64,000 nt of DNA from Squalus acanthias (taxonomy: Eukaryota): NCBI GenBank assembly GCA_030390025.1, contig CM059432.1:84384001-84448000 (forward strand), given 5' to 3'. The notes under the pieces are model-generated. The model searched no databases. It was not told the origin of the DNA and saw only the letters and a list, made by a program, of their open reading frames with translations. Shown here piece after piece: positions 13,527-60,334 of the stretch (the stretch's first letter is position 1; each line of letters begins with the position of its first letter). Both the position numbers and the translations under genes were made by a program.

Positions 13527-14273
13527 GAGGCAGAAATTCCGAACCCTACGGGTGTGTACGCGCTGTGTACTCACCCGTAGGGCCAACGGAAATTCCGGTT
13601 TCAGGCATGCATAGCGCATGCGCTGGAAACCGGCATTTCCGATCTGTCAAGAAAGCTCTTGACAGATCCTCCGCCTGCCCGGGAGAAGGGCCTCTGCGGG
13701 TGGAGAGTTCCGCTTTTTGGAGACCCTCCGCCCGCAGAAAACACTTACAATTCTTGTGCCTGGTAAAAGCTTTTACCAGGATAAGAGTTGAAAAAAGTAA
13801 AACAAAAAAAAAAAATTTCCACTGAATTATCATTTAAAAATACTTTAAAGAAAGGTAAGTTTATTTTTAGCCCCATTAAAAACTTTAATTATTTTTTTCA
13901 AAAAATAAAATTTTTGTTTAAAATACTTAATTTATGTAATTTAAAGTCATTTTAAAAATGTGATTTTTAAAAAAAAATTATTTGAAGTTTTACTATGTTT
14001 TGGGGGTGATCTCTATTCATATATTTGACTGGTCTTCCTGTCAAATGTATGATGGGAGATTCCCTTCTCTGATTGGCTCCCCATGGCCCACGTGATCCCA
14101 GGGACGCTGCGAACCACCTGCGCCTCTGGGATACGTGGGCCCTGCGCACCGGCAGTTTGGAGAGGCCCAGGAGTGGAACTCTGCGCCTCCCGGGAGCCCT
14201 CCGGTCTAGGCGCAGATTTTTCCAGATCGCAGCCCTCCGCCCGCGGGAGGCCTGCGAACGGAATTTCTGGGCC
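13527..14273. mobile_element. Harbinger-type MITE (747 bp)
   Basis: GAGGCAGAAATTCC / GGAATTTCTGGGCC, TSD ATT/ATT; reverse-complement sister at 45821-50748. Confidence 0.9.
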
Positions 14274-14518
14274 ATTGTCATTACGTAGCATTCCCAACAC
14301 TCCCGCTTTCGGCGATAGGTTTCCCACACGCTGCTCCTTGCAGCTCGGGCGAAGCAGTCCTTGTCTGCACAGTGGCCCGCCTGGCAACCAAACTGCTTTG
14401 TCTGAGCCCGCCTGTGCCCTGCTATTTGGAAACATCGCTTCGTTGCCAGTTGTGAGGATGACAGCATCGGGGCCGTCAAAAATCGCCTGGAATCTCCATG
14501 AGTTTTAAGAGAGCCACT

Positions 14519-14887
14519 GGAGGTGGGAGATAGAGACAGGAACACAAACTGCGGCGGTGGGGGGAGAGGGAGACAGAAAGACAATCTGGGGGGGAGGGGA
14601 GAGAGACAGAAACAAACTGGGGGGTGGGGCGGGAGAGAGACAGAAACACAAACTGGGGGGGGGGAGAGAGAGAGAAACACAAACTGGGGGAGAGAGAGAC
14701 AGAAACACAAACTGGGGGGGAGAGAGACAGAAACACAAACTGGGGGGGAGAGAGAGAGAAACACAAACTGGGGGGGAGAGAGACAGAAACACAAACTGGG
14801 GGGGAGAGAGAGAGAAACACAAACTGGGGGAGAGAGAGACAGAAACACAAACTGGGGAGAGAGAGACAGAAACACAAACTGGGGGGG
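14519..14887. repeat. G-rich ~28-bp minisatellite, block 1
   Basis: (G5-10)AGAGAGACAGAAACACAAACT tandem units. Confidence 0.97.
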
Positions 14888-28695: not shown

Positions 28696-30066
28696 GGCCC
28701 CAATAATAACTGCAAGGCGGGAAGTGATCGGTGTGAGGGGGGAGGGAAGAGGAGGAGATATATTAGCCGGCAAACCCAGAGCATGGGTTTCTCAGAGGTC
28801 TTGTCGAATTTAACAGCAGGACCTGATATAAATTTTTCGTATCGGTTTCCTGGCTGCAGTCAGACAGTTTGAGAGGCTGGCTGGCTGTCTGGTGGGTAGG
28901 CTGCTGGGGAGCAGACCGGAGGTGAGTTGCACATGGAGGGGAGAGGTTGGGGGTGGGGGGAGTTGAACATCGGAGGTCGGGAATCAGGGGTCCAATTGCG
29001 GGGGTGGGGTGTTGGCCGAGGGTCAAAGCAACCTGCTGCGAGGGGTCGGATTACAGGGTGGTATACAGGGTAGCTTGGGGGTGCCAGGGGGAAGTACTCC
29101 TGCTTCAGGAAACCCGTGCTGGAGAGACGTTGGGGGAAAAATGTTGTTGCTTTGCGCAAAGCAACTAGCACCCGGGCGTGGCGCCGCCAACGCCTCCCGC
29201 AAAATTCAGCAGGAGGTTAGCGGCGGCACTAACCGTTAGCGCCCCGTGGCGCTGCGCCGCCAGTAATGACGTCATCACCGTGCGCAGCACCCCGCTTGCG
29301 CCCTGGCCACGATCTTCGGGAGCACCCCTGACTTACCGCTGGACGCTATATCCGACTGGGTCGGGGGGGCCTACCTGCGGCCAGGGAGGCGCGATTTAAA
29401 GGCCAGGTGCGGGGCGGCCATTTTTGTTACTGGCCGCCTGCCAGCACCTGCCTCCGCTCCCGTCCCCGGCCTCCTTACCTGCCCCCCCCCCTGGCCCCCG
29501 TGGAGTGCCGACTGCGCTCCATGAGCCTGGCACTTCTCTTGAGTGCCAAGCTTTTTTGCCGGCACTCCCAATCCCCGGGGGCCCAGCTGGGGAGGAAGGC
29601 CTGCAATACAGCGGCGCGACATAGCGCCGCGATATTCCCTCGCAGCGCCCCAAGAGGGCAGCGGGGCACTTCCAGTAGTGCTCCACTACCCTCTTGGGAT
29701 GCTACCACTCAATTTCTGTCGCGGGGGCGCTAATTTTTCCGGGGCGCTAAAGGTAGCGCACCGGCGAAGTTAGTGCACCAAAGAGGACACTACTCAATTT
29801 TTAGCCCGTTAAATTTAAAGGTCAGTGAAATTCAATTTAAAAAGACCTAATTAACGTCTCATAAGGATGTTAATTGCTGTGATAACTACCCGCCCGCCTG
29901 TACTAATTAAGGTCCCAACTGCGGTGAGTAGTTTACTCGTAGATATAAACGTGCATCCAGAAGTGGATGCATTGGAGCCGGGTTGCAGTCGTGAACTAAA
30001 ACTCATTTATTTTAACTACCCACCTGTCTCCAACCCACCTGTTCTTGGGGGTTAAAATTCCCCCCC
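28696..30066. mobile_element. Harbinger-type MITE hosting a second MITE
   Basis: GGCCCCAATAATAAC / GTTAAAATTCCCCCCC, flanks AAG/AAG; internal similarity to 55496-56090. Confidence 0.55.
29132..29807. mobile_element. GC/CpG-rich Harbinger MITE
   Basis: GGGGGAAAAAT / ATTTTTAGCCC, TSD GTT/GTT; many GGCGC/AGCGCC motifs. Confidence 0.8.
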
Positions 30067-35100: not shown

Positions 35101-37155
35101 TTTTTAGATTTAAAATAATAAATCTCAAAGTTAACTCCACATAAAACAAACCATTTCAACACCAGTGTACAAACACATAGCACCATCATAATCCAATTAA
35201 ATGCTACAGATAACATTTATTCCAATAAACCAAGAAAACCTGTTTTACGCCAGTCCTACTGGCATTGTTCATTCGATCATTCATTCAATTGTTCGTTCGT
35301 TCATTCAAGCGTTCGTTCATTCGTAAGCGTAAGTTCCATTATGTATGTCTGAATGCGTGCGTGCGTATCAGTTGTCTAAGTGCGCGCCTGCGTGCGTTCA
35401 CTCGAATCGTTCGTCTGATCGTTCGCCACGCGATCATTCGTTCGATCGAGTGTAAGTTCCAATGTGCATGCTTGCGTTCGCTTGAATCGTTCGTTCGACC
35501 ACTACCTCCCAAGAGGTCGTTCATTCGATCGAGTGTAAGTTCCATTATGTATGTCTGAATGCGTGCGTGTGTAGCATAGTCTAAGTGCGCGCCTGCGTGC
35601 GTTTGCTCGAATCGTTCGCCTGGGGCTTTGAAAGAGGTAGCCATTGAGATAGTGGATGCATTGGTTGTCATCTTCCAAAATTCTATAGATTCTGGAACAG
35701 TTCCTACAGATTGGAGGATAGCAAATGTAACCCTGCTATTAAAGAAAGGAGGGAGAGAGAAAACGGGGAACTACAGACCTGTTAGCCTCACATCAGTAGT
35801 TGGGAAAATGCTGGAATCTATTATAAAGGATGCAATAACTGGGCACCTAAAAACTAGTAGTAAGATTGGGCAGAGTCAACATGGATTTATGAAAGGCAAA
35901 TCCTGTTTGACAAACCTATTGGAGTTCTTTGAGGATGTAACTAGTGGAGTAGACAAAGGGGAATCGGTAGATGTGGTGTATCTGGATTTTCAGAAGGCCT
36001 TCAATAAGGTCCCACACAAGAGGTTGGTGAACAAAATGAGGGCACATGGAATTGGGGGTAATATACTAGCATGGATTGAGAATTGGTTAACAGACAGAAA
36101 ACAAAGAGTAGGGATAAACGAGTCTTTTTCAGGATGGCAGGCTGTGACTAGTGGGGTACCGCAAGGATCGGGCTTGGGCCCCAGCTATTCACAATCTATA
36201 TCAATGATTTGGATGAGGGGACTAAATGTAACATTTCCAAATTTGCTGATGATACAAAGCTAGGTGGCAGTGTCAGTTGTGAAGAGGATGTGAAGAGGCT
36301 TCAAGGGGATATCGACAGGCTCAGTGAGTAGGCAAGAACATGGCGGATGGAATATAATGTGGATAAATGTGTAGAAAAAACAGAAAGGCAGAGTATTTCC
36401 TAATTGGTGAAAGATTAGGGAATGCAGATGCTCAAAGGGACCTGGGTGTCCTTGTACATGAGTCACTGAAAGTGAATGTGCAGGTGCAGCAAGCCATTAG
36501 GAAGGCAAATGGTATGCTGGCCTTCATTACAAGAGGATTTGAGTACAGGAGTAAAGAAGTCTTGCTCCAATTATATCGGGCCTTGGTGAGACCACACCTG
36601 GAGTACTGTGTACAATTTTGGTCTCCTTACCTAAGGAAGGATATACTTGCCATAGAGGGAGTGCAACGAAGGTTCACGAGATTGATTCCTGGGATGGCGG
36701 GACTGTTGTATGAGAAGAGATTGAGTAAACTAGGCCTTTATTCTCTTGAATTCAGAAGAATGAGAAGGGATCTCATTGAAGCATACAAAATTATTACAGG
36801 GCTTGATAGGGTGGATGCTGGGAGAATGTTTCCCTTGGCTGGGGAGTCTAGAACCAGGGGCACAGCCTCAGGATAAAGGGTAGGCCATTCAGGATTGAGA
36901 TGAGAAGAAATTTCTTCACACAGAGGGTGGTGAATCTTTGGAATTCTCTACCCCAGAGGGCTGTGGAGACTCAGTCATTGGGTATATTCAAAACAGAAGT
37001 CGATAGATTTCTGACTAGTAAAGGCATCAAGGGATATGGCGATAGGGCCAGTGAATGGAGTTGAGGCAGAAGATCAGCCATGATCTCATTGAATGGCGGA
37101 GCAGGCTCGAAGGGCTGAACAGCCTACTCCTGCTCCTATTTCTTATGTTCTTATG
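32146..37155 (+). mobile_element. Near full-length CR1 LINE (ORF1 with premature stop at 33213; ORF2 frameshifted and interrupted)
   Basis: ORF1 32425 onward (GDS, GTND, DGLH); APE 33360-34562; RT 35628-36876 (NYRPVSLTS, LDFQKAF, GVPQGS); tail TTCTTATG. Confidence 0.95.
34896..35618 (-). mobile_element. Unclassified 723-bp insertion in CR1 ORF2, probably a retroposed 3' UTR fragment
   Basis: 15-bp TSD CCTGGGGCTTTGAAA (34881-34895, 35619-35633); minus-strand AATAAA near the left end; CpG-rich internal repeats. Confidence 0.8.
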
Positions 37156-39898
37156 TCCTGGTGGAGGAGGTCCAGAGGAGGAGGGATCTCCTGTACCCAT
37201 GGGTGGGGGTAGGGGAAAACGCCACAGAGGCAGCTAATGTGGTGGATGTGGGAGGAGATCGCCCAGGAGGTAACAGCCAGCAGCCCTGCCCCCATAACAT
37301 GGCTCCAGTGCCGCAAAAATTTAACAACTTGACACGCGTGGAAAAGGTAAGAGCCCATTTTACAAACACACTGCTCAATAACTGCACAACCACCACCAGC
37401 ATCACAACCTCATCACACTGCATCCACCATCTAACTATACACTGGCATTCAAAGAACCCACGCTATTACATCCTTCACAGGCACTACTCACACCTCAGAC
37501 ACAACTCGCAATTCTTCAACCATTTGTGTCATCACACTCATTCACAAACACCACTCCTCAGGACAAGATAGCACATAACAGTTGCCAGCAGGACCTGACC
37601 GGGGGAGGAGAAGCACAGCTCCATGAGATCACTCCCCTTGAGGAGGCAGTGTTGGCTGTGATCGGGAGGGGCGTGGCAGACGCCATGACCACAGGCAGAG
37701 CAGGGGCAATATCGCCCAGAGGTATGTGGCCACTCCAGCTTTATTACAGATGCACAACTATTCCTGATCCCCAATCCCCAAACCTATCCTCACTCCCAAG
37801 CTTCATATGGTCTCCTCACATGCATCCTCCTATAATGGCCACACGTGCAGCTTAACCCTTCCGGCTTTATTATTGCAGGCTCCCAGGAGCAAGATCCGCC
37901 TCACCCCCTTGGAAGAACTGGAAGAGGAGTAAGGGCTACCTCGCCGGCCCCCCACCCCCTCCCCCCAGAGGAAGAGGAGGAGAGCGAGGAAGATGGCACT
38001 GCATCAATTGCTACCACTGTCGCAGGCACTAGCTCGGAGACTGGCAACACGTATAACATAGAGGTTAGGGTAGAAGAGGGATCCTCACAGTGAGAAGCAC
38101 TGGGCACTAGTGGGCAGCAGCGACGCCAGGTGGAAGGGACTCCACAGGTTCCGAGGGGCAAGGTTGCATACTGGTTCTGCTGATGAGGATCTCGTGGGGC
38201 CAAGCTTCAGAAGAAGGCTGATGGGTTTGGCAAACCAAACGCTTTGTGCAATGGACAGCCTGCCTGAAAACTTACAGGTCTTGGCTGGGGGATGGAGGAG
38301 TCTGCCTCCTGCTTGGCCCGTGGCTTGACATAGAGCCATTGTGGAGAGGCTGGCCAATTCCATCCAGTAACCTGTGAGCCCAACATCATGCAGCGCCTGA
38401 TGACTGAGGTTGCAACTTCCACTGCAGTCATAGCAGCTTCCATGGAATGCCAACAGCTTGCATGGAATGACAAAGTGCTGCAATAAAAGCCCAGACAGCT
38501 TCCATTGCACTACTTGCATCTTCCATGGAACGGCAAACTGCTGCAATGGAAGCTCAGGCAGCTCCCACAGTGGCTCTAAGCTCCTTGGTTGAAAGGGGCG
38601 TGCAGATTGTCTCCGATGCCCAGAGATCTGTCCTCCAGCAGATCACTGGGCTGGCTGAACAGAGGCCCCAAGATAGTGGAGTGGGAACCATGCAGCAGGA
38701 ACCTATTGGCCTCTGACTGCTGAAGCCTGCGCTGAGATGGTGCAGTCTGAGGTGGGGCCATGGCGGCCCACAGCCTCTCAAGGGTGTCCCAGGAGGACAT
38801 CTGAACTTCCCTCTTCAGAATCAAAGCAGCCTCCACCTCGCCTGCTGCTGCTCAGATGGCACTTCATAGAAGCACCAGAGTAGGCAAGAGCACTTATAGA
38901 TAGCCACTAAGGGGAAGCACCAGCGTGAACAGTTTAATACTTGTAAGTGCTGTTGGTTGTGTCATGTCTTCATTGTTTGTTTTTTCTGTAGATAAAGAGT
39001 GATGATGGTAATTGGGTAGTGGTGGAATTGGTGGTCTTTTTTATTGTGATCTTCATGGGGAAGGAACTGAAAGGATTAACTGCAGATGATGGACTTCCTG
39101 ATGGATCTTCAGTCATGGAAGGTAAATCATGTGGCAACAGTGCTCCAGAGTCTGATGGTGGAGCATGTCTCTCAAAAGCGCTCTTCAATTAGATGGCAGT
39201 GAGTGATCTCGCCGGTACGGGCCATCTACCTGGAAGCATCTGGTGCTCCCCATGATCCCCCTCCTCTTCCTTTTCCTTCTCTTCCTCTTGTGGCTCCCAA
39301 GCTTGACCCTCTTGACAATTACTGGTGGTAATAGCTGGTCTCTCATGATCGCCAGATTGTGGAGCATGCAGCAAATCACCACGAATCTGGAGACCTTCTC
39401 AGCCAAGTACTGCAGGGTACCTCCTGACCGGTCAAGGCATCGAAACCTCTGCTTGAGGACCCCAATGGCCTACTCAATAATATTCCTGGTGGCTGAGTGG
39501 CTCTCATTGTATGAGTGCTCTGCTGGTGTCTGGGGCTTTCTCAGGGGAGTCATGAGCCATGGCATCAGAGGGTATCCCTTGTCACCTAGTAGCCAGCCAT
39601 GCACATTGCGTTGGGGCTCAGAGATCTGTGGGATGGATGACTGTCTCATTATAAAAGCATCGTGGCAGCTCCCTGGATAGCAGGCATTCACCTGCATGAT
39701 ATGCTGTCAGTGGTTGCATACGAGCTGCACATTGAGGGAATGGAAAGCTACTGTGATCTTGACTGCTACAGGCAATGCAGTCCTGACTGTGCTGCGAGGT
39801 CTGAGTCTTCCTTCCATGAGGCTACAGAGCTCTGTGACAACCTCCTTGGTAAAGCGCAGCCTCCTCATGCACTGGTCTTGGGTCATGTGGGTTAGTGC

Positions 39899-41577
39899 TG
39901 TAGGACGTGTGGAATTACCCCTTGCCCCGTCCAACAGGTTATAAAGTTCGGACTTGAGACTTATGAGACACCAGACACATGGGTTCTGCCTTTAACCTTT
40001 TATTGTTCCAAGACAGATTCAAAACCCCAACCACTATTCGAGCAGTACACCAATAATGTTACAAGAAATCATACAGCGTTGATTTAGGCCACTTCCTTTC
40101 GACTGCAGCTCTTCGCCTTCCGACTGCAGTTCTTCGAGTTGAGATGATCAGCCAGGCCCCTCCTTCTGACTGCAGTCACTGGTTTTTATACAGTTTTCCT
40201 TGCCTTTTTCAGTAAATCAATCATTCAGCGATTGTGAGATGTTCCTTTAATGTTCGACCTGAGTTGTTTGAGCTGTCAAACTTTCACACTCACACATCCT
40301 GTGTGGCTATCCATTAGTTGCCTTTATCAAAGCCCAAATTTGTTCATTTACTCAATGGCCCAGAAATTGATCTCGCTCTGTTCCCGCGGGGGTAAGCCTT
40401 TCCCGCGATGTCTCACCTCGCTTATGCTTTTTCTGATCCAGCTCGCACGAAATTGATGTTCCAGACATCAGCTGTGCTGGGCTTGCGTATCCCAGCGGCG
40501 TAGTTAATTCGTGCGAGCTGTGGGATCACGTGACTCAGTTAGAGCCAATGGCAGCACACCATCTTCCATTCATAAGTCTCACAGCATGGCTGAGAGACTT
40601 ATGAATCTTACACCCCCCCAAAATAACAGCTAAACCTCAATTAAATTTAAAAAAAAACCCATCACATTAATAAAATAAGTATAGTTAATTAAATTAACCA
40701 TTTTAAATAAAAAATTAAATTTTTGAAAAAATTTAAAATCTTTTAAAAAGTTATAAAAATAAACTTACCTGTCTTTAAAGTCTATAAAAAAGATATACCT
40801 GTAAAAAAAAATTCAAAAAAATACTTAATTCACTACTTACCTTCTTAAAAGCGGGTCTTACTCCTCCTTTTTACATTTCCAAAATCTTCAGTACTTACCT
40901 GCGCGTCCAAAGCATGAAGTGCACAGCGTGCGCGCAGCCTGTAGCGCGCACGCGATGCACTCCGGCCCCGCCCCCTTTTCGGAAGAGCAATTGCCGGTTT
41001 TCAGCGCATGCGCAGGGCATGCAGAAAACCGGCAATTGGAGTGGGAATACGCGAGAGTATGCAGTGCGTACTCTCGCGTCCCGGGATCAATTTTCGGCCC
41101 ATAAAAGTTTACAAAACTGGCAGCAAACCACTTGGTCACATTTCACGTGTTACATCGCATCCTGTATTTCAGAACTTCAAATGTTTGACTCCTCCCCTTA
41201 ACCACCAAAAGTCATTCTACAACCTTGTAGCCTGTGTAGTTGTCGACACGAAGTCTGCAAATCTAAGGGGGTTTGTTTATCTCTGTTGTCTATGACTACC
41301 CCCTGCAGTCACAACCATTTATTCTGTCAGTATCTGCTTATCCGAAACACAGCTCTTGAAATATCTCCATCACAAAGCAGCTTCCAAATCCAACAGTTTC
41401 TTGTGAAAGCTCACCAAATCTTTGCTGCCTTTATCAAAGCACATTCCATGTCCACTTATCAGTGAAAGACAATCTGTTACATTCACAAACTTTATTTCAC
41501 CTCGAAAAACATTTTGGCCTGGCAAAGCATTTCAATATATACCAACATTAAAAATGAAGGGTCTGTATATACCTACA
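39899..41577 (-). mobile_element. Solo LTR in the copy B transposase (~930 bp without the nested MITE)
   Basis: TGTAGG...CCTACA termini, TSD GTGC/GTGC, minus-strand AATAAA near 40000. Confidence 0.85.
40357..41100. mobile_element. Harbinger MITE, reverse-complement sister of 4992-5735
   Basis: GGCCCAGAAATTGATC / GATCAATTTTCGGCCC; colinear similarity throughout. Confidence 0.9.
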
Positions 41578-41800
41578 GTGCTCTCTGAAAACCCTGGGTG
41601 GATAGGGCCTCCTGCTGAGAGCCCTCCTCGCCCCCCTGTCCCCCTCTCCTGCAACAGATGGTGCTGCTCTGCTTGGCCTCATCCCCTCCTTCCAGACCAA
41701 GGGAAATCCCTAGCAAGATCCCATGACCAACCACTCCTTTTCTCCTGGTGACTCCTATAAGGTACGGTAGCACTGTGCTTATTCTTTTTAGGTAAAGTCC

Positions 41801-42331
41801 TTGTGTGAGGTCATTGAATTTCTTGCATCCAGGCCCTCAGGGTTTGACTCCTGGCATTGACCATCATGGCTATCTGGTCCCACTGCCATCTGAGCGTTTG
41901 TCTGGAGGGCCTCCTGGACCTCTGTGGATAAAGCACTTCTCTCCTCCTTTCCACCTCCTCCACCAAGGCCTCCAGTGTAGTGCCGCGAATGTTGGAGCAC
42001 GCTCTCTCCCATGTTGTACCATTATTCAGTCTTTTTTCACCTCAGAGTGACTTGTACAAGGACATCCACCACCTGCTCCAGCCACAGTGCACTTCCCCTT
42101 TAAGAGGTGCAAGCTGGCTTTAGGTAGCGCAGGCTAACTTTAACTTGTGCTAGCCTCTCCTGATTTTGGGCCCCCTGCTGAGGCGTGCAGTCATTCAACA
42201 GCACGGTTAGGGCTGGCTGCATGCTACAATCATGGTAATGAACAAGCAGCACGAAGTTGGCATGCTGCCTGCATCACATTGAACGGGCGCGAGCCCTGTG
42301 CCCATTTTCGGGGGCTATCCAATTTAGCCCC
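41801..42331 (-). mobile_element. Myb-side end of another Harbinger (degenerate exon 1 + TIR)
   Basis: Minus strand MVQHGRERAPTF...KKFNDLTQ; end AATTTAGCCCC. Confidence 0.7.
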
Positions 42332-42334
42332 CCC

Positions 42335-42525
42335 TGTCTCCACTTCCCTCTCCTCCTTAAAACCCAGTCTTTTACCAGCCTTTTTGCCTCCCCTCCTAAT
42401 ATCTCCTTCTTCAGCTTAGCTTCGATTTCTTTGCACCTCTGTGACGTGCCTTGGGATGTTTTTTGATGTGCCTTGGGATGTTTTTGTATGTTAAATTCAA
42501 ATTGTTTTAAGTTAAGTTGTTATTG
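42335..42525 (+). mobile_element. L2-type 3' tail fragment
   Basis: CTCCTCCTTAAAACCC...CTCTGTGACGTGCCTTGGGATGTTTT with a local duplication. Confidence 0.55.
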
Positions 42526-43605: not shown

Positions 43606-44346
43606 GGCCCTGAAATTGCGGTGTCTTCGACAGCATACTCTCAGAGTACACCATCGTATTCCCTTTGAAAAGCCCCGTAAATTCCGGATTTCAGCATGCG
43701 CTTGCGCATGTGTGAAAGCGGAACTTGCAATCTGTCAAGGTATGTCTTGACAGGTCATCCGAACTGACTGAAAAATGAGTATTGCTGCCGCAGAGTTGGG
43801 CTATTTGCAACTCTTATGGCTGGTAAAAGCAGGTGTAGGGCCTGATTTCATCAGCGTAAGGGTACATATAAGGCTTAAATAAAACATTTAAAAATCCAAA
43901 ACTATGCACATAGACTTTAAATGAGTTTATGCAAATATTGGCCTGGATTAAGAAGTTTACAATTATTTACAAAAAATTACATTTTTTTTGAGGTTGGTAC
44001 AATGAAGGGACTTATGAATAAAATTGCAATTCAGTACATTTATAATCATTAGACTTCTGTACATTGTATAATTATTTGGGGATTCCATTGCATATCATTA
44101 GGGGATTCCCTTCGCAAATGATTGCAATGGAATTCTCCTTTGTCAATGGAGGACTGGGCCCACGTAATCCCAGGGATGCTTCTGAACCGTCTGCGTCCCT
44201 GGGATCCGTGGGCTTTTATGCTGCCGTATGCCTGGAGGCCTGAGACCGCAACCCTTTGCAGCCTGATGCCTGGAGGTAAATTCGTAAAAGTTTCGTGGAT
44301 CTGAGGCGTACTCTGGAGGTACACCTCCGACCGCAATTTCTAGGCC
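43606..44346. mobile_element. Harbinger MITE related to 13527-14273
   Basis: GGCCCTGAAATTGCGGT / ACCGCAATTTCTAGGCC, flanks AAT/ATT. Confidence 0.85.
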
Positions 44347-46681
44347 ATTAAAGTAGTCACTCTGGGCTGTATTTAAGCACCTTCCATGGACTAGTTGCAC
44401 AATAACATTGGCAAATCCATAGTTGCAGGTCTCCAATATGTCCTTTTAACTATGATTGATGAGTGTCATGGGAAGAGCAACCAAAAGGACAAGAGTAAAA
44501 CAAACATAGAACACCCTGGAATTTGATGTAAAAAAATAAGAGCATGGCGTGGATTTGGGGCACATGTGATGCTATTCGTTAAAATAGCACAACTATCAAT
44601 GTAATCATACAGCTAAATGTAGGTCTCCATTAACATAGGTATTCCATTGCCATTAAGAACATGGATCTAGTTGCTGCTTGAAGAATTTCTTTCTGAACTT
44701 GGAAACTTCAATTTAAACAGTTTTTTTGGAGCAGTAATCTGACAACAACTGTATAAGTAGGGGCCATCTATATTTGGTTCATGTTTTCCAAGTGTATTTC
44801 TGCCCAGTGAAAGTAGAAGGGATATGCCTAAAAAAACTAACATAATCATAGAAACTTTAAAACTGGTTTGTGTTTTTTTTACATTTAATCCATATTAATT
44901 AAATTGTTATATAATACTAAAGCAACATTATGTGAAATATGTAATATCAAGAATACTTGCAAATCAGACATCAAGGGGGTAACAAGGCATTATTTGAATT
45001 ATAATGTTTGATGATCATTACCCTTATCAAAGAAAATCCTTTGGAATAAACATCCTTTTACAAAATACATTTTAATTAAAAAATTCTTAACATTGTTGAA
45101 TATGTTCTTTATAATAGAGGATGGTTTTATTTTGATTGACTGGTTTCAGAAACTAATGCTTATTGGCATTGTAATTCGAATACAAGCAATCCATTCTGCT
45201 CCGTGCATAGTTTTCCTGATAATAAGCACTATTCATATTACTTAAGTGGCATGAACACACAAAAATAAAGTAATTAAAAAAATAAAGTAGTTTAGTGTTT
45301 TTGTTGATATTTGCTTTAAGTTTTCCATATAAGTGTTCGTGAAAAAAGTTTTGCTTAGCTGACTTTTTTTCATTTAATTTTCTTTTACAGAAAACCATCA
45401 AAAATGATACGAGCTTGTTCTTCTAGAAACATCCTGTATTATTGCAAATAGAGATTAACAATTAGTTCGAAGTTCAATAAATCGTGATACCTACCTCAAA
45501 TCTTCTGCTTTATCAGGCTACTACAATGAACAGAATCCCTTATAATTAAAGGAAGCAATATTTTTGCAGCTTCAGCTCAATGAGGTAACTGACCTTGATC
45601 TAATTCAGATGCAGCTTTCTTAGTAAAAACTTAGTCAATGGATATGGAAAATTGTTTTCTTGGATAGAGTCTTTCATTATTCTCAATAAAAACACATTTA
45701 TATATCAACACATATTTAGATACAGCTGAGTTTTGAATTCTAGCCGCAATAAATTTCAAGGAAGACATACCCACTAATAAATATTTAAGAGTCATTTAGT
45801 GCCTTCGTTTTTAAGACCATGGCCCGTATTTTCCGATCGCAGGCCTCTCGCGGGCTGAGGCCTGCGATCTGGAAAAATCTACGCCCTTACCTGAGGGCTC
45901 CCGGGATGCACACGCTTCTGCTCCTGGGCCTCTCCAAACTTGAAGTGCGCAGGGCCCACGTATCCCAGGGGCGCATGTAGTTCGCAGCGTCCCTGGGATC
46001 ACGTGGGCCATGGGGAGCCAATCACAGAAGGGAATCTCCCTTCATACATTTGACAGGAAGACCTGTCAAATATATGAATGGAGATCACCCCAAAAACATA
46101 GTCAAACTTTTTAAATAATTTTTTTTTAAATCACATTTTTAAAATGACTTGAAATTACAATAAATTAAGGGGTAAAAATTCAGTTGGTTGCGCCTCCCGT
46201 TAGCGCCTTAAATGGGCGCTAATGGGGCGTTAAGGCGCTAACGCCCGGGCGCAGCGCTGTTTGCGCCGCTCGAGAACTTAACTTGAGATTGTGCGGCGGC
46301 GCTAAAACTTACCGCTGCGACCACCTGCGCGCGCAGATTGTGACGTCAGTCCGTGGTGCAACGCCCTTGGGGCGCCCCGGAGCGGAAATTGAGTGGCGCC
46401 CCCTGCCTTACCGCCTGGCGCTTCCAACGACCGGAAGACTGGAACGTTATCAATCGGTCTGGGGCTGGGGGGGGGCGCTATTTAAAGGGGGCCTCTTCCT
46501 GTCTTTTTCTGTGGTCGACATTTATGCACCACTCGTTCTGAGAGAGAGAGAGAGATTCGGAGAGAGAGAGAGAGAGACTTCTACATTGACTCAACGCTTT
46601 GTGAGGTAGTTTTGCCTAGTTCATCCTAACTTTGCTGCTACTTTCGTTGCTGTACCTCATTACTTTTCTGGCAAAGAGAAG

Positions 46682-47842
46682 ATGGGGGCTGCAATGATTG
46701 GGGGCGTCGTCCTGCTCCAGCTCAATCGGAGCAGAGTGAGACGCAGACAGAGAGTGGCAATGATGGCCAGACGGAGGAGGCCCATCAGGCGCATGTACAG
46801 GAGAGCTTACCCTCCCAGGGTATATCGTGAACAGCTCTCCTACATCCACATGTCCGAGGAGCTGTGTTTGCGAAGGCTGCGATTCAGCAAGGAGGTGGTC
46901 ACTGAGCTCTGCCACCTGCTGCAGCCAGATCTGCAGCCTCAGCTGAGGTCCAGGACGTCTCTGTCGGTGGCAGTGAAGGTCACAGTGGCCTTGAACTTCT
47001 ACGCCACTGGCTCATTCCAAGCTGCTGTTGGGGACCTCGCCAATATCTCCCAGTTTGCGGTGCATCGCTGCATCCGGCAGGTCACCAATGCCCTCTTCAC
47101 AAGGAGACGAGACTTCATCTCCTTCCCTATGACCCCAGACAAGCAGCATGACCGTGCTATGGGCTTTGCGAGGGTAGCGGGCTTCCCCATGGTGCAGGGC
47201 GCCATTGACTGCACGCATGTGGCTTTGCGTGCTCCGCGAGAGAATGCAGAGGAGTTCCGGAACAGAAAGGGGTTCCATTCCTTGAATGTGCAGTTGGTCT
47301 GTGACCACAGACAGGTGATTCTCGCTGTCAATGCCCACTATCCGGGCAGCTGCCACGATGCTTTCATCCTGCGCCAGAGTACTGTGGCAGAAATTTTCGA
47401 GGCACCGCATCAGCCAGTTGGTTGGCTTCTGGGGGACAAGGGGTACGCATTGAGCACCTGGCTGATGACACCGCTCCGTGCGCCAAACACCCCTGCTGAG
47501 CTGCGGTACCAGGAAAGCCAACAAGCAACGAGGAACATTATTGAGCGCACAATCGGCGTGCTCAAACAACGATTCCGCTGTCTGGACCATTCCGGAGGAG
47601 CCCTGCAGTACTCGCCTGAGCAAGTTTCCAAATTCGTAGTGGTGTGCTGCATGTTGCACAACATGGCAATCCTCAGGACGCAGCCAATGCCACCAGGCCT
47701 TGCAGCACCACAAGAGGAGGAGGAGGAAGAGGAGGAACAGGCCGAGGACGATGATCAGCAGCAGCACCAAGGCAGGAGGGCGGCCCACAATGGTCAAACT
47801 GCAAGGGCCGTCCGTCAACGACTAATAGCAAGCCGCTTCTAG
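46682..47842 (+). CDS. Harbinger DDE transposase (HARBI1-like family), 386 aa, intronless
   Basis: GAIDCTH, NRKGFHSLNVQ, GSCHD, GDKGY, IERTIGVLKQRFRCL, CCMLHN, acidic tail. Confidence 0.95.
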   Translation: MGAAMIGGVVLLQLNRSRVRRRQRVAMMARRRRPIRRMYRRAYPPRVYREQLSYIHMSEELCLRRLRFSKEVVTELCHLLQPDLQPQLRSRTSLSVAVKVTVALNFYATGSFQAAVGDLANISQFAVHRCIRQVTNALFTRRRDFISFPMTPDKQHDRAMGFARVAGFPMVQGAIDCTHVALRAPRENAEEFRNRKGFHSLNVQLVCDHRQVILAVNAHYPGSCHDAFILRQSTVAEIFEAPHQPVGWLLGDKGYALSTWLMTPLRAPNTPAELRYQESQQATRNIIERTIGVLKQRFRCLDHSGGALQYSPEQVSKFVVVCCMLHNMAILRTQPMPPGLAAPQEEEEEEEEQAEDDDQQQHQGRRAAHNGQTARAVRQRLIASRF

Positions 47843-48136
47843 GACCCCTGCCAGTGCTACAAACACGAATCAACCCAGCACGCAACCCCTAAGCCGGCCA
47901 AGGCACCAATAATTCCAACCACCAGCCATGTATATTTTGAATACAGAAACTTATTTATTGTACAAACTCTGTGTGTGTCAATTCCTCATGACAAACTCAT
48001 AGAAATAAACACAAAAAAACAGTCAATAACATAACTGGTTCTCACAACCTGGAGATAATGTCCAAAACACTAAACAAAAGTTGGGCCATGAACCTCGGCC
48101 TTTAATAAAAAAATGACCAGCATTTTGGCACACCTC

Positions 48137-49992
48137 CTACTTTTTGCCCTTCGAGGGTGATCTCCTTCCCTTGCGCACTTCCCCCCTTCTAACCCTACTG
48201 CTCCTCCGTAATGGGACCTCAGTGGCTGCAGCAAGGCTGGTGGAAGGCTGCTGCTTGTCAGACCCTGACACTGCAGATGCCCCTGAAGGACGGCCTCGAC
48301 CACTTCTGGGCCTGGAGGGCCCGGCTGCAGACTGCACCAACTCTGCATGGGCGGCAGCAGTCTGTCCTACAGGCGGTGGCAAGTGCAGTGGAGAAGTGAC
48401 AGTGTTGGCAGCAGGAATGCTGTCATCGTGAGAGAGGACAGCAACTCCCTGCTCGCCCGACACACTGGCACTCCCACGGGGCAGCACTTCAGCATCCGGA
48501 GCAATTTGCCTGAGAACAGATTGCTGGCCTGCTGCGGCGCGGTGACAGCCCCGGGGACATGTGCACGAACCATCGAGGATGGCAGCAGTCAGTGCTCGCG
48601 TGGCCTCAATCTGAGTCTGCATGAGAGCAGGCTCAGATGGGTTCCTGGCAGCCAGTGACTGAATTGCAGCAGTAAGCTTTAGTGTGGCATCCGCCTGTGC
48701 TACAGCGAAGTGCTCCACACTCCTTGCCAGTGCCTCAATGCATTCGGGCACCCTTCCCACTGCACCCATGAGCTCAGTGTGCATGACCACCGCCTGGCTG
48801 TTCATTTCTGCAATCAGCCGCTCCTCCTCTGCGTCCATTGCATTAGGAGTGTCTGGCATACTCTCCCTCTGGGGAGAAGGCTCCCGTTCTTCCCTCCCCC
48901 CCCCATGGCGTTGCTGCAGCCCGCTGGGTCCTGGAACTTCACCATCATCAGCCCCTTCCCCCCTGCTCCCCCGTTCTTCCCTCCCCCCCCCATGGCGTTG
49001 CTGCAGCCCGCTGGGTCCTGCAACTTCACCATCATCAGCCCCTTCCCCCCTGCTCCCCTCCGGGGAAGGCGTGTTCCCAGTGTGGCCATGGGCTTCCTCG
49101 GGAGAGGGTGGCACTGATGCTCCGGCTTCCTCTTCCTCCTCAGCTGCAGCATCACTCCCAGTGGCAGCTTCAGGGACCATCTCCTCAGCTGGTGAATCAC
49201 CATCTGAAAGCAGGGAGGTACAAGAGTGGCTTTAGCGTGAGGACAGGGTGGCAGTAAGGGAGGAATAAGTGCAGCGAGTTAGCAAGTTGGATTGAAAGTG
49301 TCAAAGGCTGGTATTGTGAGGGACAAGTGGAAGGACAGAGGACAAAAAGGTGATGACCTTACCATTGCTGTCCACAACGGGGTCGGCGTCTCCAGTGGCG
49401 ACGGGACCGATCACCCGGCTTGCCACAATCCTGTGGACGCGCTCCTCCAGATCGCTGAGGGGTTGCAGCTGAAGCCGCCCTCCACCCGTCCGTTGCTGCT
49501 GTCTCCGATTATGAGCCAGCTTAGCCTGCAAGAAAAAGGACAGCATCTGAGTCAATATACAGCCATGGTCTTGCCTGATGTGCCTCCCATAGGTGAATAG
49601 CCCTTACTGTATGCAAAGTGTGGAATGTGTGTGTGTGTTTGATGAAAGGGCCATAGGTGTTGGATGAGTGTTGTGCATTGGGGTTTTAAGACCCTCTGGC
49701 CATAGAGTGAGGTTGAGATGGAGGGATGGAGAGGTATTGAGAAAAAGCCACTCACCCTGACGACCCGAGTGAGGTCGTTGAACTTTTTGCGGCACTGGAC
49801 ATGGGTCCTGGGCACCATGCTCCTGGAGGAGACGCTCTGAGCCACCTCCCTCCACACTCTTCTGAACTCGCGTGGCAAAGGCCTCCTGCCACTCTCTGGG
49901 AACAGCATGCATCGTCTGCGCTCCACTGCGTCAACCAGAGCATCCAAGGCCCGCTCGGTGAAGCGATGAGCGCGTTCTCTCACCCTCTCCAT
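48137..49992 (-). CDS. Harbinger Myb/SANT-like DNA-binding protein, 3 exons (49992-49756, 49525-49363, 49203-48137), 488 aa
   Basis: RFTERAL..W.EVA..R...QCRKKFNDL; donors AGG/GTGAGT and ATG/GTAAGG, acceptors TTTTTCTTGCAG and CTGCTTTCAG; 237+163+1067=1467 nt, open throughout. Confidence 0.88.
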
Positions 49993-50821
49993 TCTTGGCA
50001 GCAAAATGGATTACAGGTCTCTCCAGGCTGAGATTCAAGGCTGCAATGAGCAGGGTGTGGCTGGGGAGCAAGTGGCCCCCCCCCGCTTTAAGAAGTGTCC
50101 GGCGCCAGTGTGTCTGTGTTCCCGCGCTAACTGGCAGCAGCTGCGCTGCGCTCGTGCGCTGAGTTAGCGCCTCACTCCTAGGCCTTTGCGCCTTAAGAGA
50201 GGTGTGCAGCGCCTAATTTAGCGCTCCACTCACCTCCCGGGGCGGTAAAAGTGAAGTTTCCTGTCAGTGCCGATAATTAGCGCCAGGCGCTAATATTTGC
50301 GCCCCAAATGGGGCGCGACCTAATTTCTACCCCTAAGTATTTTAAACAAAAATTTAATTTTTTGAAAAAAATAATTAAAGTTTTTTACGGGGCTAAAAAT
50401 AAACTTACCTTTTTTTAAAGTATTCTTAAATGATAAATCAGTGAAATTAAAAAAAAAAAAAACTTTTTTCAACTCTTATCCTGGTAAAAGCAGGCCTTAC
50501 GCCTGCTTTTACCAGGCGTAACAATTGTAAGGGTTTTCTGCAGGCGGAGGGTCTCCAAAAAGCGGAACTATCCGCCCGCAGAGGCCCTTCTCCAGGGCAG
50601 CCGGAGGATCTGTCAAGACCATTCTTGACAGATCGGAAATGCCGGTTTTCAGTGCATGCACTGTGCATGCCTAAAACCAGCATTTCCGATGTCCCTACAG
50701 GTGGGTACACAGCACGTACCCACCCGTAGGGATCAGAATGTCTGGGCCCATATTTTGATAATTTTCCCTTTTAGCCAAGAAAAAAATTGGTTTCCATTCA
50801 AAGCTTTTGAGCGAACAAACA

Positions 50822-53296
50822 CTTCTACATATAGATTGGGCTAACCAAATTAGTAACAATACTGTGGAGGAGGAATTCCTGGAGTGTATACAGGATGGTT
50901 TCCTGGACCAATATGTCGAGGAACCAACTAGAGATCAGGCCATCTTAGACTGGGTATTATGTAATGAGAAAGGATTAATTAGCAATCTTGTTGTGCGAGG
51001 CCCCTTGGGTTGGAGCGATCATAATATGATAGAATTCTTCATTAAGATGGAGAGTGAAGTAGTTGACTCAGAGACTAGGGTCCTGAATTTAAATAAAGGA
51101 AACTACGATGGTATGAGGCGCGAGATGGGTAGGATTGATTGGGGAATGTCACTCAAAGGGTTGACGGTGGATAGGCAATGGCAAACATTCAAAGATCGCA
51201 TGAATGAACTACAGACTTTGTTCATCCCAGTTTGGCATAAAAATAAAACAAAAAAGGTGACTCAACCGTGGCTAACAAGGGAAATCAGGGATAGCATAAG
51301 ATCCAAGAAGAGGACATATAAATTGGCCAGAAAAAGCAGAAAACCTGATGATTGGGAGCAGTATAGGATTCAGCAAAGAAGGACAAAGGGATTAATTAAG
51401 AGGGGGAAAATAGAGTATGAGAGTAAGCTTTCAGAGAACATAAAAACTGACTGTAAAAGCTTTTATAGATATGTGAAGAGAAAAAGATTGGTGAAGTCAA
51501 GCGTAGGTCCCTTGCAGTCAGAATCAGGGGAATTTATAATGGGGAACAAAGAAATGGCAGACCAATTAAATACATACTTTGGTTCTGTCTTCACAAAGGA
51601 GGACACAAATAACCTCCCAGAGATGTCGGGGAACATAGGGTCTAATGAGAGGGAGGAATTGAAAGAACTCAGTATTTGTAGGGAAATAGTGTTAGCGAAA
51701 TTGATGGGATTGAAGGCCAATAAATCCCCAGGGCCTGATAATCTACATCCTAGGGTACTTAAGGAAGTGGCCCTAGAAATAGTAGATGCATTGCTGGTCA
51801 TCTTCCAAAATTCTATAGACTCTGGAACAGTACCCATGGATTGGAGGGTAGCTAATGTTACCCCACTATTCAAAAAAGGTGGTAGAGAGAAAACGGGGAA
51901 TTATAGTCATCGGTAGTGGGGAAAATGCTAGAGTCCATTATAAAAGATGTAATAGCAGAGCACTTGGAAAACAGTGACAGGATCGGACAAAGTCAACATG
52001 GATTTACAAAAGGTAAATCGTGCTTGACTAATCTACTGGAATTTTTTGAGGATGTAACTGGTAAAATAGATAAGGGAGAACCAGTGGATGTGGTGTATTT
52101 GGACTTTCAGAAGGCTTTCAAAATAGGTCCCGCATAAGAGATTAGCGTGTAAAGTTAAGGCACATGGGATTGGGGGTAAGGTATTGACTTGGATAGAGAA
52201 CTGGTTGGCAGACAGAAAGCAAAGATTTGGAATAAATGGGTCTTTTTCCGAGTGGCAGGCAGTGACTAGTGGGGTACCGCAGGGATCGGTCCTTGGACCC
52301 CAGCTATTCACAATATATATGAATGATCTAGACGAGGGAATTGGATGTAATATCTCTAAGTTTGCAGACGACACAAAGCTGGGTGGGAGTGTGTGCCGTG
52401 AGGAGGATGCCGAGAAACTCCAGTATGATTTGGACAGGTTGGGTGATTGGGCAGAAGCATGGCAGATGCAATATAATGTGGATAAATGCGAGGTTATCCA
52501 CTTTGGTGTCAAAAACAGGAAGGCAGATTATTATCTGAATGGCAATAGATTGGGAGAAGGGGAAGTGCAACGAGACCTGGGTGTCCTTGTGCACCAGTCG
52601 CTGAAGGTAAGCATGCAGGTGCAGCAGGAGGTTAAGAAGGCAAATGATATGTTTGCCTTCGTAGCGAAAGGGTTCGAGTACAGGAATAAGGATGTCTTGC
52701 TGCAGTTGTACAGGGCCTTGGTGGGACCACATCTTGAGTATTGTGTGCAGTTTTGGTCGCCTTATCTGAGGAAGGATGTTCTTGCCATGGAGGGAGTGCA
52801 GCGAAGATTCACCAGGTTGATACCTGGGATGGCAGGAATGACGTATGAGGAGAGATTGGGTCGACTGGGCTTATACTCGCTGGAGTTTAGAAGAATGAGA
52901 GGGGATCTCATTGAAACTTATAACATTCTAACAGGACTAGACAGACTAGATGCAGGAAGGATGTTCCCGATGGCCGGGGAGTCCAGAACCAGGGGTCACA
53001 GTCTAAGGATAAGGTTAAAGGTAAGCCATTTAGGACTGAGATGAGGAGGAATTTCTTCACCCAGAGAGTGGTGAACCTGTGGAATTCTCTACCACAGAAG
53101 GCAGTAGAGGCCAATTCATTAAATATATTCAAGAAGGAGTTAGATATATTTCTTAAGCTAAAGGGATCAAGGGATATGGAGAGAAGGCAGGGACAGGGTA
53201 CTGAATTTGGATGATCAGCCATGATCTCATTGAATGGCGGAGCAGGCTCGAGGGGCTGAATGGCCTGCTCCTGCTCCTATCTTCTATGTTTCTATG
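50822..53296 (+). mobile_element. 5'-truncated CR1 LINE (ORF2 with a small deletion and frameshifts)
   Basis: SDHN, KSPGPD, LDFQKAF, GVPQGS, FADD, HLEYCVQFW; tail CTATGTTTCTATG. Confidence 0.95.
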
Positions 53297-56104: not shown

Positions 56105-59100
56105 ATATTTGATCGAGGTGTTCAAAATCATGAGGGGGTCTGGACAGAGTAGATAGAGAGAAACTGTTCCCATTGGCAGAAGGGTCGAGAACCAGAGGAC
56201 ACAGATTTAAGGTGATTGGCAAAAGAACCAAAGGCGACATGAGGAAAAACTTTTTTACGCAGCGAGTGGTTAGGATCTGGAATGCACTGCCTGAGAGGAT
56301 GGTGGAGGCAGACTCAATCATGGCTTTCCAAAAATAAGAAAAAAATTAGCAGGGCTACGGGGAAAGGGTGGGGGAGTGGAGCTAGCTGAAGTGCTCTTGC
56401 AGAGAGCCGGCATAAGCTCAATGGGCCAAATTCTTTGCTGTAACCATTCTATGATACTATGGCCAGAATTTTCCGGGGGCCGTGCGGGCGTGATCGGAGG
56501 CGTGTTGGTTGGGAAAGTTGAAATTTCTTGCAGCGGGTCAGGAACCCACCGTCATCCCACCTTTCCCTCAGGCGTGTCTGTTAGCACGGTAGCAACCTGG
56601 CCGGCAGAGGCGGGCAACCCAATTTAAAGGATTATTAGCTTGTTGTCAGACCCTTAAGAATGTTTTTAACCTTATCTTTCCAATTTCACTGGATGTCCAC
56701 GGGACTCATGCTGCTCAGGGACCACGTCTGTCAATCTGAGGCGGGAGTTGAGTGGCCATTGATCCAGCTGATTAGTTGACAGCATCAAATGTACTATAAA
56801 AGCACCCACCTGACAGCTGATCACTTTCCTCAGGCAGAAGCTGTTGCTCACTGCATTGCCAGCACAGATTGAACTTTCTGCAGGCTGCAAGTCTTTCCAG
56901 CAAAGTCTCCATCCAGTATCACCTTATTGGAAGAGCCTCTCTCACCATTGACAGATTGCTTCTGTTATCTCTACTTCACCTGCCATGTATTCCATCAACA
57001 TGGGTGCCATTTATACTGTCTCACCTTGGTCCTCAGAATCTGATGCCCAACACCAGCAGCACCAGGCACACCAGCAGTACCAACAACAACACCAACCTTC
57101 TCTGCAATCACCTGATGCTCCACAGGACAGAGGGCATCAGCACCCGAGCACATTGCTGCCCAGGAGGCCAGGGATGGCCTCGCCATGGCCAGGTTTACTT
57201 AACTTTATGCTGTACACTCATATGACGCCAAGTTGGCACCACCCCACACCAACACCATAAAGCATCCCTACAATGACCAAGCCATTCCTATCACACTCAC
57301 CACCATTGCTGGCAGCACCATTATGTCTCACCATTCACTGCAACTCACTAAGCCACTTCCAAAGGTGCACACAAATCTGTCCAAGACCGGAAAGTGTTGA
57401 AAATAAAGATTTTTATGTTTGACAGCACATTAACGGAAACTTTACATAAACATTGGATAAAACACCCAAGTGGCTACCGTTGTGAATCTACTTCCGTGTC
57501 ATCTTTCTCTTCTGCATGCTTCTACAAGGTGCTACCCCTGTGGCTTCAGCAGAGGTAGTGGCAGCCTACTCACTTCCCTGCTGCCAAGGAGCTGGAGAGC
57601 ACCTTGCTGCGCATCAATGGGGCCATGAGGACCCATGTCTACGCTGACACCCCTTCTAGAGAGGAGGTCTATGAGTCTCTGCCATCGATTCTCCATAGCT
57701 AGCCATCTATTCGCCATAGAGACCATGCAATCCTGTGAGTGACACATTAGCTGCTCCATGTAGGTGCCCATCCTATCCATGGAGGAGCCTACAGTCACCA
57801 TCGCTTGTGACATGGTGGTGCTCATGTTGGAGATGGACTCCTCCATTCTCTGAACATTTGCAGACATCGCACTAGCAAAACCTGTCACAGCCTCCTGCAC
57901 TTCTTCCTGCACCTCCAGGATCGACCTCTTTCTGGATGGCCCCCGAGGTTCAACGTCTGCATGCAACTGAGCAGAGCTGGATGCGTCCTGTGCCCTCCGG
58001 CGAGGAGTCTCCACTGCTGTCCCTGTCTCCACCATCTGCTCTTGCTCACTTGTGAGTTGTGAGACACCAGGTGACAACACTACTCTATCTCGCGGGGTGC
58101 GTATCTGCGCTGGTGCCGTGTGCGCTTATGTCTGGTGACAGTGCACCCTCAGAGGCCAGGGGCTCCTCTGAGGAGTCGTCTTCCTCTTCCTTCTGGACAG
58201 TGTGGGGGGGGGGGAGTGGGGGGTGGGGGGTGGGGGGGCTCTTGATGGACCTGTGGGAGAGTAAAGAGATGAGTTAGATATGTCATATGAAGAATGGGTA
58301 CAGATACCATTATGCACATGATGACCATTCAATGGCTGCTGACATCAGTCCCCATAGGAGTGACTGCTGTATGCCATGTGACTGTATGATATGTATTTCT
58401 GTCACCAGGTTGCTGAGATGTCTGCCTCTCTCCGTCTCCCATCGCCAGCTGCTCGGCAACTCCAGATATTTCTAAAGCAACCTCCTCTGCTGTTGTACAG
58501 TTTGCAAATGATGGAGGGCCACCGCAGGTTCTCTCCCTCTCCCCCTTATTTTGAGCTTTCTTTTCCTGCAAGGAGGGAAAGAAGAGAAAGTTGAGTGAGA
58601 GTGATGGAATGAGTGTAAGGAATGGATGGGTTAGATCTTTAGAGGGATACTATGATGGAGTGGGGTGCCAAAGCCAAGTGGCCTCTTTGTGTGTTGATAG
58701 TTGGTATGATTGCATTAGGATGAGGGTGAGTGTGAGGGGTGGTTAGTCAGATGGGGATGTGATAATGTAGATAGAGAGAGAGGGATGGGTGGATGTGCAA
58801 GGTGTGTTGGTGTGAGTAATGATGTGCAGGAGCAGGGTTGGGAAGGCAGAGTGATGGGGATGTGATGAGAGGCACAGCAGGATGAAGTTGGGTGTGGCTT
58901 TGCATTCACGTTTCCTGATCTAATGAGATCATTAAAAAGTTTGCGGCACTGCACCCAGGTCCTCCTGACCACATCCCTGCTGTTGACCTCCTCTGCATAC
59001 TCCAACCAGGCTGTTTCGGTCTCCTGGGAAGGTCTCTTCCACCCATTGGAAGGGAAGAGGACTTCCCTGCGTGCTCTGACTCCGTCTACAAGCATATGGA

Positions 59101-59454
59101 GGGAGTCATCGGAGAACCTGGGTGCAGCCCTCTGCCTCTGTGCAGTCATTTCCAAAGTGTTTGCAGCACTCCAATGCTGTCGTGCACTGACTGCACTATT
59201 TTAGATCAACCTTCAAATGTAACGTGGCCATGGCCCCTTTAAATATCCCGGCTGAAAATGCGTCATTGATGACGTCAGCAGACCCGCACCATTTAATTGG
59301 ACTAGGTAACGCGCAGGGCGGACTTAATGGGCCCTATTGAAGTAAAGTCGTTTTGTGCAGCGGGATGGAGTTAGCAATGAGGCCGCGATCCGCCGTGGCC
59401 ACTGCCTGTACCAGACTTGCCCAGGTAGGGAAAATTCCGGCCTATGATTCTATG
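56105..59454 (+). mobile_element. CR1 3' fragment (56105-56460) whose (TTCTATGA)n tail is split by a Harbinger
   Basis: LIEVFKIM..LFPLAEGSRTRGHRFK..KNFFTQRVVRIWNALP; tail resumes at 59443. Confidence 0.85.
56461..59442. mobile_element. Non-autonomous Harbinger: transposase almost entirely deleted, Myb gene retained but frameshifted
   Basis: TIR GGCCAGAATTTTCC / GGAAAATTCCGGCC (13/14), TSD TAT/TAT; minus exons 59149-58910, 58565-58406, 58250-~57480. Confidence 0.9.
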
Positions 59455-60056: not shown

Positions 60057-60334
60057 TGGAAGGGTTAGTTTAAGAAAAAAGCCAGTTTTTAGAATATTTT
60101 GGAATTTCTGGGTCATAGTTAAGAATGTCTTTCAGTGTTAAATCTCCAGTTGGAAGAGTACAGTAATGAAATCTGCCAGCACTGTGGAATGGTTCAGTGC
60201 AAAGGAAAATACTTCTATTTCATTGAACCATGATATGTAGTTTTAATGATGCGGAGATGCCGGTGTTGGACTGGGGTGGACAAAATTGAGAGGTCGCACA
60301 ACACCAGGTTATAGTCCAACAGTTTTATTTGAAA

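Follow-up and report, generated by a model that had tools for sequence, protein, structure and literature searches.

PIF/Harbinger elements of the PHIS superfamily share a TWA target-site duplication, a DDE transposase gene accompanied by a Myb/SANT gene, and short terminal inverted repeats (TIRs) that start with G or A (PMC4482050; this paper and those below are cited for the portions of their text that were available). A Harbinger needs both genes, its Myb-like protein binding the ends as well as importing and recruiting the transposase (PMC9392472, citing Sinzelle et al. 2008). Han et al. 2015 give the group a mean length of about 4,124 bp and call "potential active" the families with two intact open reading frames (ORFs), of which they count 88 (PMC4482050). 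We have analyzed a window of 64,000 nucleotides from Squalus acanthias (assembly GCA_030390025.1, contig CM059432.1, positions 84,384,001 to 84,448,000 of the forward strand; positions below are those of the window), in which an element of 4,165 bp at 46169..50333 carries two convergent genes. Its length is near the group mean and its frames fit the "potential active" definition (PMC4482050), but it was matched to no named family in a comparison with Repbase and Dfam outside it, and it reads YQESQ in place of YNxSH. We consider it probable that this element is an intact copy of a young subfamily, belonging to a very abundant PIF/Harbinger family and inserted in an older, unrelated miniature inverted-repeat transposable element (MITE) that served only as a target.

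The architecture of the element is in itself ordinary, since intact vertebrate Harbingers are already known from sea kraits. There, Harbinger-Snek counts 269 intact two-gene copies in L. colubrina and a single one in L. laticaudata; RNA covers both of its genes, non-autonomous derivatives are numerous, and its activity was inferred and not assayed (PMC8437027). Both are massive vertebrate families with intact two-gene copies. However, Harbinger-Snek was horizontally acquired, whereas our element finds its closest proteins in further Harbingers of elasmobranchs, and the window contains many diverged Harbinger families side by side. The zebrafish Harbinger3_DR was shown to jump but had to be reconstructed (PMC3016246), and it targets CWG in a 15-bp consensus (Sinzelle et al. 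2008, as cited in PMC3016246 and PMC9392472). The likeness lies in the two-protein mechanism, with end binding by the Myb-like protein and transposase import, and in the palindromic target preference (PMC3016246, PMC9392472); unlike Harbinger3_DR, the window copy is natively open in both frames and is flanked by a duplicated TAA. In the coelacanth, Harbingers amount to 9.3% of the genome (PMC3787270), and LatiHarb1 (as cited in PMC3787270 and PMC9179366) is a further case of abundant and diverse Harbingers in a slowly evolving vertebrate, from another lineage and likened to our element by description, not by sequence. Rice Ping/Pong with mPing also associate an autonomous element with non-autonomous derivatives, and their TIRs need not match perfectly; mPing has the ends of Ping (PMC9921582), whereas the local MITEs, which end in GGCCC, are devoid of the ends of this element.

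Concerning cartilaginous fish, the available text of Etchegaray et al. reports no Harbingers detected in the elephant shark and leaves other cartilaginous fish to be tested (PMC9179366), while the grey reef shark genome paper places Harbinger among the commonest DNA transposons in one line (PMC12498223). A natively active element of the same superfamily, Spy, has been described in insects (PMC11304231). Our literature search, with most subscription papers and supplements outside it, found neither a study centred on shark Harbingers nor an assay of any native vertebrate Harbinger.

Structure of the element and its target site

The element is flanked by TAA at 46166..46168 and at 50334..50336 (plus strand), a duplication seen in the sequence and by comparison with a paralogous empty site, and the insertion site reads AAAT-TAA-GTAT. 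On both sides lie the arms of the host MITE, with GGCCC-type ends (45821..46165 on the left and 50337..50749 on the right, plus strand). A paralogous, uninterrupted MITE at 13527..14273 (minus strand) possesses a single, empty TAA at 13927-13929. The first-pass annotation had announced that the empty site of the element was visible in the same window, at about 13917-13935. This site is real and corresponds to a 20-mer at 13916-13935 on the minus strand; it is, however, a paralogous MITE copy and not an empty allele. The host MITE and this copy show 83 differences in 742 aligned bases (11.2%); the empty site fixes the ends of the element and gives no insertion date.

The same borders were found in public runs. 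Twenty-four runs were listed and four of them (X1, X2, X3 and X17) were compared over 44700-51000, all as contigs. Joints skipping exactly 4,168 bases, that is, the element and one TAA, were present in X1 (12 contigs), X3 (11) and X17 (1), which confirms the element ends and the TAA duplication. The depth of these joints, 408 in X1 and 203 in X3, is at the level of dozens of paralogous MITEs, and because paralogous MITEs yield the same joint, they are uninformative on polymorphism at this locus. In X1 and X3 the locus contains the host MITE, and the empty joints are not assignable to this locus.

The TIRs, GGGGTAAAAATT / GGGGTAGAAATT, occupy 46169..46184 (plus strand) and 50318..50333 (minus strand). 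They are identical at 11/12 positions, with the mismatch at position 7, and at 13/16, and, as the ends are fixed independently by the empty site, the chance of the 11/12 agreement is about 2e-6. The terminal 200-bp bins are rich in CpG (observed/expected 1.34 and 1.25, against 0.45 window-wide) and both ends contain clusters of the motif TTAGCGCC: four exact copies at 46200..46305, in a CpG-rich context, and three at 50164..50293. These seven represent more than half of the 13 exact copies of the window, for about 0.02 expected per end, and the interior of the element has none; the clusters are candidate binding sites for the Myb-like protein. Altogether, the element displays the four features by which Han et al. 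2015 define PIF/Harbinger within PHIS (PMC4482050), namely a TWA duplication, short TIRs starting with G, a DDE_Tnp_4 ORF and a second, Myb/SANT ORF. The NuwaI (CWG), NuwaII (C|TNA|G), Pangu (ANT) and ISL2EU (AT) groups, as defined in PMC4482050, were considered and rejected, the site of the element reading T-TAA-G.

The transposase ORF (46682..47842, plus strand) encodes 386 amino acids and matches PF13359 (DDE_Tnp_4; E 5e-38). The catalytic residues D176 (47207), D226 (47357) and E288 (47543) are present, as is D252 (47435), and YQESQ, instead of the usual YNxSH motif, precedes the catalytic glutamate. Among 3,045 candidates, a protein search gave 361 relatives at E <=1e-20, the best 120 of which come mostly from sharks and rays, as befits an elasmobranch host, and reach at most 66% identity. 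In comparison with these best 120 homologues, the transposase has kept 90 of the 92 columns conserved at >=80%, which ranks it 4 of 121 (median 0.88). Against one decayed relative from the window, the nonsynonymous rate (dN) was 0.24 and the synonymous rate (dS) 1.9 over 141 codons; two of the three paralogue comparisons had a saturated dS. In the predicted model of the transposase, which is a confident one (predicted local distance difference test, pLDDT, 88.5; predicted template modelling score, pTM, 0.84), D176 falls in a strand and E288 in a long helix. In the PDB, a sequence search for a solved relative produced one chance match (neuroguidin, E 0.013) and a profile search none, and Foldseek gave nothing at E 0.001 and a series of weak matches, many of them to DDE transposases and integrases (best E 5e-3). 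A candidate intron in the 5' untranslated region of this gene may also be noted at 46606-46681, with GT at 46606, a pyrimidine tract and AG directly before the ATG.

The second gene lies on the minus strand. Its predicted exon 1 (49756..49992, 79 codons) contains the Myb/SANT domain and matches PF13873 (Myb_DNA-bind_5; E 1.3e-9); it would be followed by intron 1 (49526..49755, 230 nt, GT-AG), exon 2 (49363..49525, 163 nt), intron 2 (49204..49362, 159 nt, GT-AG) and exon 3, which runs to the stop (48137..49203) and ends in a basic C-terminus with 12 K/R in the last 30 positions. In silico splicing of the three exons yields 488 open codons. A search with exon 1 for longer proteins returned 1 match among 158 candidates, too few for checking exons 2 and 3. 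Between the converging genes, AATAAA signals occur at 48004 and 48104 on the plus strand and at 47954 on the minus strand. Exon 3 contains an in-frame 87-bp tandem duplication (48883..49058) with 1 mismatch; contigs of X3 skip 88-90 bases in this interval, which indicates that other copies exist without the duplication.

A joint between 49203 and 49363 (CT..AC, 159 bases skipped) was observed in three contigs of X17, with a depth of 336, and in none of X1, X2 and X3. It coincides exactly with the borders of intron 2 predicted beforehand. The joint of intron 1 was not among the 15 of 225 joints listed. No stop or frameshift is present in the 874 codons of the two genes. The proposal of a complete two-gene Harbinger was borne out, with both frames open and D-D-E residues, GT-AG borders of the predicted introns, TIRs, TAA duplication and CpG-rich ends all found.

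Abundance and age of the subfamily

The element or part of it is contained in 20 of the 24 listed runs, and 15 of them hold at least half of its sampled 31-letter words. These 15 span six organism labels or have none, and the compared runs carry two labels, A and B. On the unique left flank, X1 has a depth of about 12 and shows 4 substitutions in 1,147 bases; for X3 the depth is about 6.4, with 1 substitution in 1,144 bases. These differences correspond to an allelic range of 0.09-0.35%. From this match we take X1 and X3 to be Squalus acanthias or a very near species.

In these two runs, the contig depth summed over the element is 10^4 to 10^5 times that of the unique flank. This sum is no copy number; corrected for contig overlap by a factor of 31, it is still about 500-4,700 times the depth of the unique flank, to be read as an order of magnitude. 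The contigs lying on the element are between 90% and more than 99% alike. The family is very abundant. In X1 and X3, both element ends have 2.2-2.8 times the median depth of the interior; this excess probably points to internally deleted derivatives of the family elsewhere.

The age of the subfamily was approached through X2, a very small set of 184 records and 0.14 Mb with the other organism label (B). Five interior contigs of X2 differ from the window copy by 4 letters in 3,394 bases (0.12%), a count from which the left-end contig was kept out because of its higher depth and probable collapse with derivatives. The unique flank is uncovered in X2, in which three loose ends, at 46167, 50334 and 50337, lead into other flanks, and which also carries a separate empty sister MITE on one contig of 2,550 nt. 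At 18 of the 19 listed interior places where much of the family depth of X1, X3 or X17 differs, X2 shares the letter of the window, and this agreement assigns X2 and the window copy to one subfamily. The divergence of X2 does not differ significantly from the allelic divergence of X1 (Fisher p 0.12): it is like allelic divergence, not lower. Whether 0.12% or, as discussed below, nearer 0.3% is taken, the element divergence is far below the 11.2% that separates the two MITE copies.

The subfamily thus appears young for this genome. In absolute terms, its age may still amount to 0.2-2 million generations, as the mutation rate of the epaulette shark is slow (7e-10 per generation; PMC10587355). 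The claim of a recent insertion in the first-pass annotation holds in this relative sense, by virtue of the near-identical X2 copies at other flanks, and no longer through the paralogous empty site, which does not date the event.

Mechanism and rival explanations

We propose that cut-and-paste transposition placed the element at a TAA within the AT-rich central part of an older MITE that belongs to a different family. Its Myb-like protein would bind the element ends, most likely at the TTAGCGCC clusters, and would import the transposase into the nucleus and recruit it to the TIRs; the DDE transposase would then excise and integrate the element with a 3-bp duplication. The chances that the proteins of this copy are still functional seem near even. 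That they form a native competent transposase/Myb pair, in a subfamily segregating or still moving in sharks, is possible but rather doubtful.

Several observations weigh against an intact copy of a young subfamily. In the transposase, three residues deviate from conserved positions: Q277 stands where 104 of 115 homologues have N (N277Q), Q280 where 96 of 117 have H (H280Q), and A256 where P is found in 72 of 115 as well as in much of the contig depth of the family itself (P256A). The left-end contig of X2 has 7 differences in 231 bases, and the right end shows two further differing places and a gap; with the left-end contig included, X2 shows 11 differences in 3,595, a whole-element figure nearer 0.3%. 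X2 moreover has another organism label and collapsed contigs, so that two single copies of one species are not what is being compared, and 4 differences in 3,394 at 7e-10 per generation correspond to 0.23-2.2 million generations. As to splicing, the shorter side of the intron-2 joint has just 24 letters, and a contig of X17 at 49650-49896 crosses the intron-1 donor unspliced. X17, which is an RNA run by guess and does not cover the unique flank, has only the other letter at 24 of 28 listed places in the element, although these rows were picked as the best-supported differences and are biased. Splicing of intron 2 probably holds at the level of the family, with X17 letters following copies other than the window copy.

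These observations could also be accounted for by a well-preserved but dead or crippled copy, to which we give somewhat less than an even chance. Its frames would have stayed open through the slow mutation of sharks (PMC10587355), P256A, N277Q and H280Q would impair the enzyme, and the subfamily would have stopped long ago or moved in trans by the transposase of another copy. This explanation agrees with the preferred one on anatomy and parts from it on competence. Besides the three deviations, the TIR mismatch at position 7 and the X17 letters that follow other copies would fit it, as would the coding changes relative to other family letters, 9 of the 15 listed being non-synonymous, although the synonymous share of 6/15, from 40 of 200 rows listed, is uninformative. 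On the other hand, N277Q requires two base changes and the X2 contig at 47185-47699 shows 0 differences, which suggests that residues 256, 277 and 280 were carried through transposition and are not the product of decay; this transposition could have been in trans. The 874 codons free of stops and frameshifts also speak against a dead copy, and the mobile Pong itself has imperfect TIRs (PMC9921582).

The first-pass annotation had further proposed that the element drives the local MITEs. In favour of a currently active autonomous element whose proteins also mobilized the GGCCC-ended MITEs, all these sequences are Harbinger-like and the element has the only intact transposase among 5 tblastn matches within the window. 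Both TIR types read GG....AAATT, with 8-9 of 12 positions in common, and one left-end alignment to the MITE at 13527-14273 scored 39 (z 4.4), a further point against our reading. However, the remaining 11 of the 12 alignments of the element ends to six MITE pieces are at z <=1.7, and the MITE type GGCCCAGAAATT differs from GGGGTAGAAATT of the element at TIR positions 3-5, while each base of the TIR plays a part in the mobility of mPing (PMC9921582). The MITE flanks are AT-centred (AAT, ATT, CAT, ATA) and not TAA. The host arms are devoid of exact TTAGCGCC, as are the four MITEs (4992-5735, 13527-14273, 40357-41100 and 43606-44346), with at most 1 in each when one mismatch is allowed, against 7 in the element ends. 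The MITEs are also far more diverged among themselves (at least 11%) than the element is from its sister copies, and a decayed Myb-bearing element at about 56461-59443, with GGCC ends and TAT flanks, would be a closer candidate for the partner type. We thus find no support for the proposal that the element drives these MITEs, its mobilization of them appearing very improbable, and the host MITE is best read as target, not as cargo. By comparison, a decayed non-autonomous relative at 29130..29807 (plus strand, left edge approximate) does share the end design of the element, with 3 exact TTAGCGCC and alignments to both element ends at z 16.7 and 6.3.

A recent horizontal transfer of the subfamily into this lineage would explain the near-identity across organism labels together with the protein identity of at most 66% to the best matches; the 15 runs with at least half of the sampled words and the 99.9% match of X2 (label B) over the interior would be in line with it. 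We nevertheless hold it to be very improbable, given that the best protein matches are from sharks and rays, that the contigs of the family are widely spread (90-99%), and that close shark species and slow evolution account for the sharing, 4 of the 24 runs having been compared. The two genes could also be thought of as domesticated host genes of the HARBI1/NAIF1 type, since 118 of the best 120 of the 361 relatives are named "putative nuclease HARBI1". Yet many of the listed HARBI1 proteins are without catalytic residues (E288 is present in 75 of 116), as expected of annotated transposon copies, and the TIRs, the target-site duplication, the very high summed depth and the copies at other flanks make domestication extremely improbable; a domesticated single-copy gene is ruled out by the paralogous empty site and the multi-copy state.

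Neighbouring repeats and significance

Some further observations concern the MITEs. The flank pairs of the GGCCC-ended copies read AAT..ATT (two), AAT..ATA, ATT..ATT and CAT..CAT or AT..AT. Such a target, centred on AT, is nearer to A|AT|T (ISL2EU) or ANT (Pangu), as described in PMC4482050, than to TWA. For the MITE at 4992-5735, a paralogous empty site near 39648 has one ATT, and a 2-bp or a 3-bp duplication would require one extra change. This MITE and that at 40357-41100 each contain three donor-like CTTACC/GGTAAG motifs on one strand, and they lie inside two decayed Harbinger-type elements, from which nesting in both directions can be deduced. The window comprises at least four such further decayed elements with transposase or Myb remnants, at 3335-6975, 7231-9050, 37155-42335 and 56461-59443. 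The last of these, whose ends resemble those of the local MITEs more than the ends of the intact element do, is inserted in what appears by eye to be the short-repeat tail of a CR1.

Copies of CR1-type long interspersed nuclear elements with matches to endonuclease, reverse transcriptase (RT) and GDSL-esterase ORF1 are found at 33345-37155, 50824-53296, 1692-2937 and 32146-33387; the copy that starts at 50824 is 5'-truncated and lies 75 bases from the host MITE. At the end of the window, a perfect inverted repeat of 1,043 nt with an 18-nt spacer (61897-64000) overlies an open RT frame of 758 codons (ORF 60712-62985, minus strand; PF00078), which we take to be Penelope-like. This inverted repeat reflects either a very recent inverted insertion or an artefact of the assembly. 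The other flank at the X2 loose end at 50334 matches 60290-60318 on the opposite strand (28 of 29 letters by eye), in a repeat beside the Penelope-like element. Two arrays of one 28-bp minisatellite are also present, at 14518-14990 and 16343-17034.

The window thus displays a rich elasmobranch Harbinger landscape that includes an intact young copy. If its native proteins work, no reconstruction would be needed to study the two-protein mechanism in vertebrate cells, and a natively working vertebrate Harbinger would be available with a readable end code, in the form of the TTAGCGCC clusters, together with a TWA target motif. The structure of the transposase would then come within reach for a family in which our sequence and fold searches found no solved structure. 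Working proteins would also mean that DNA transposition is ongoing in a very slowly mutating vertebrate.

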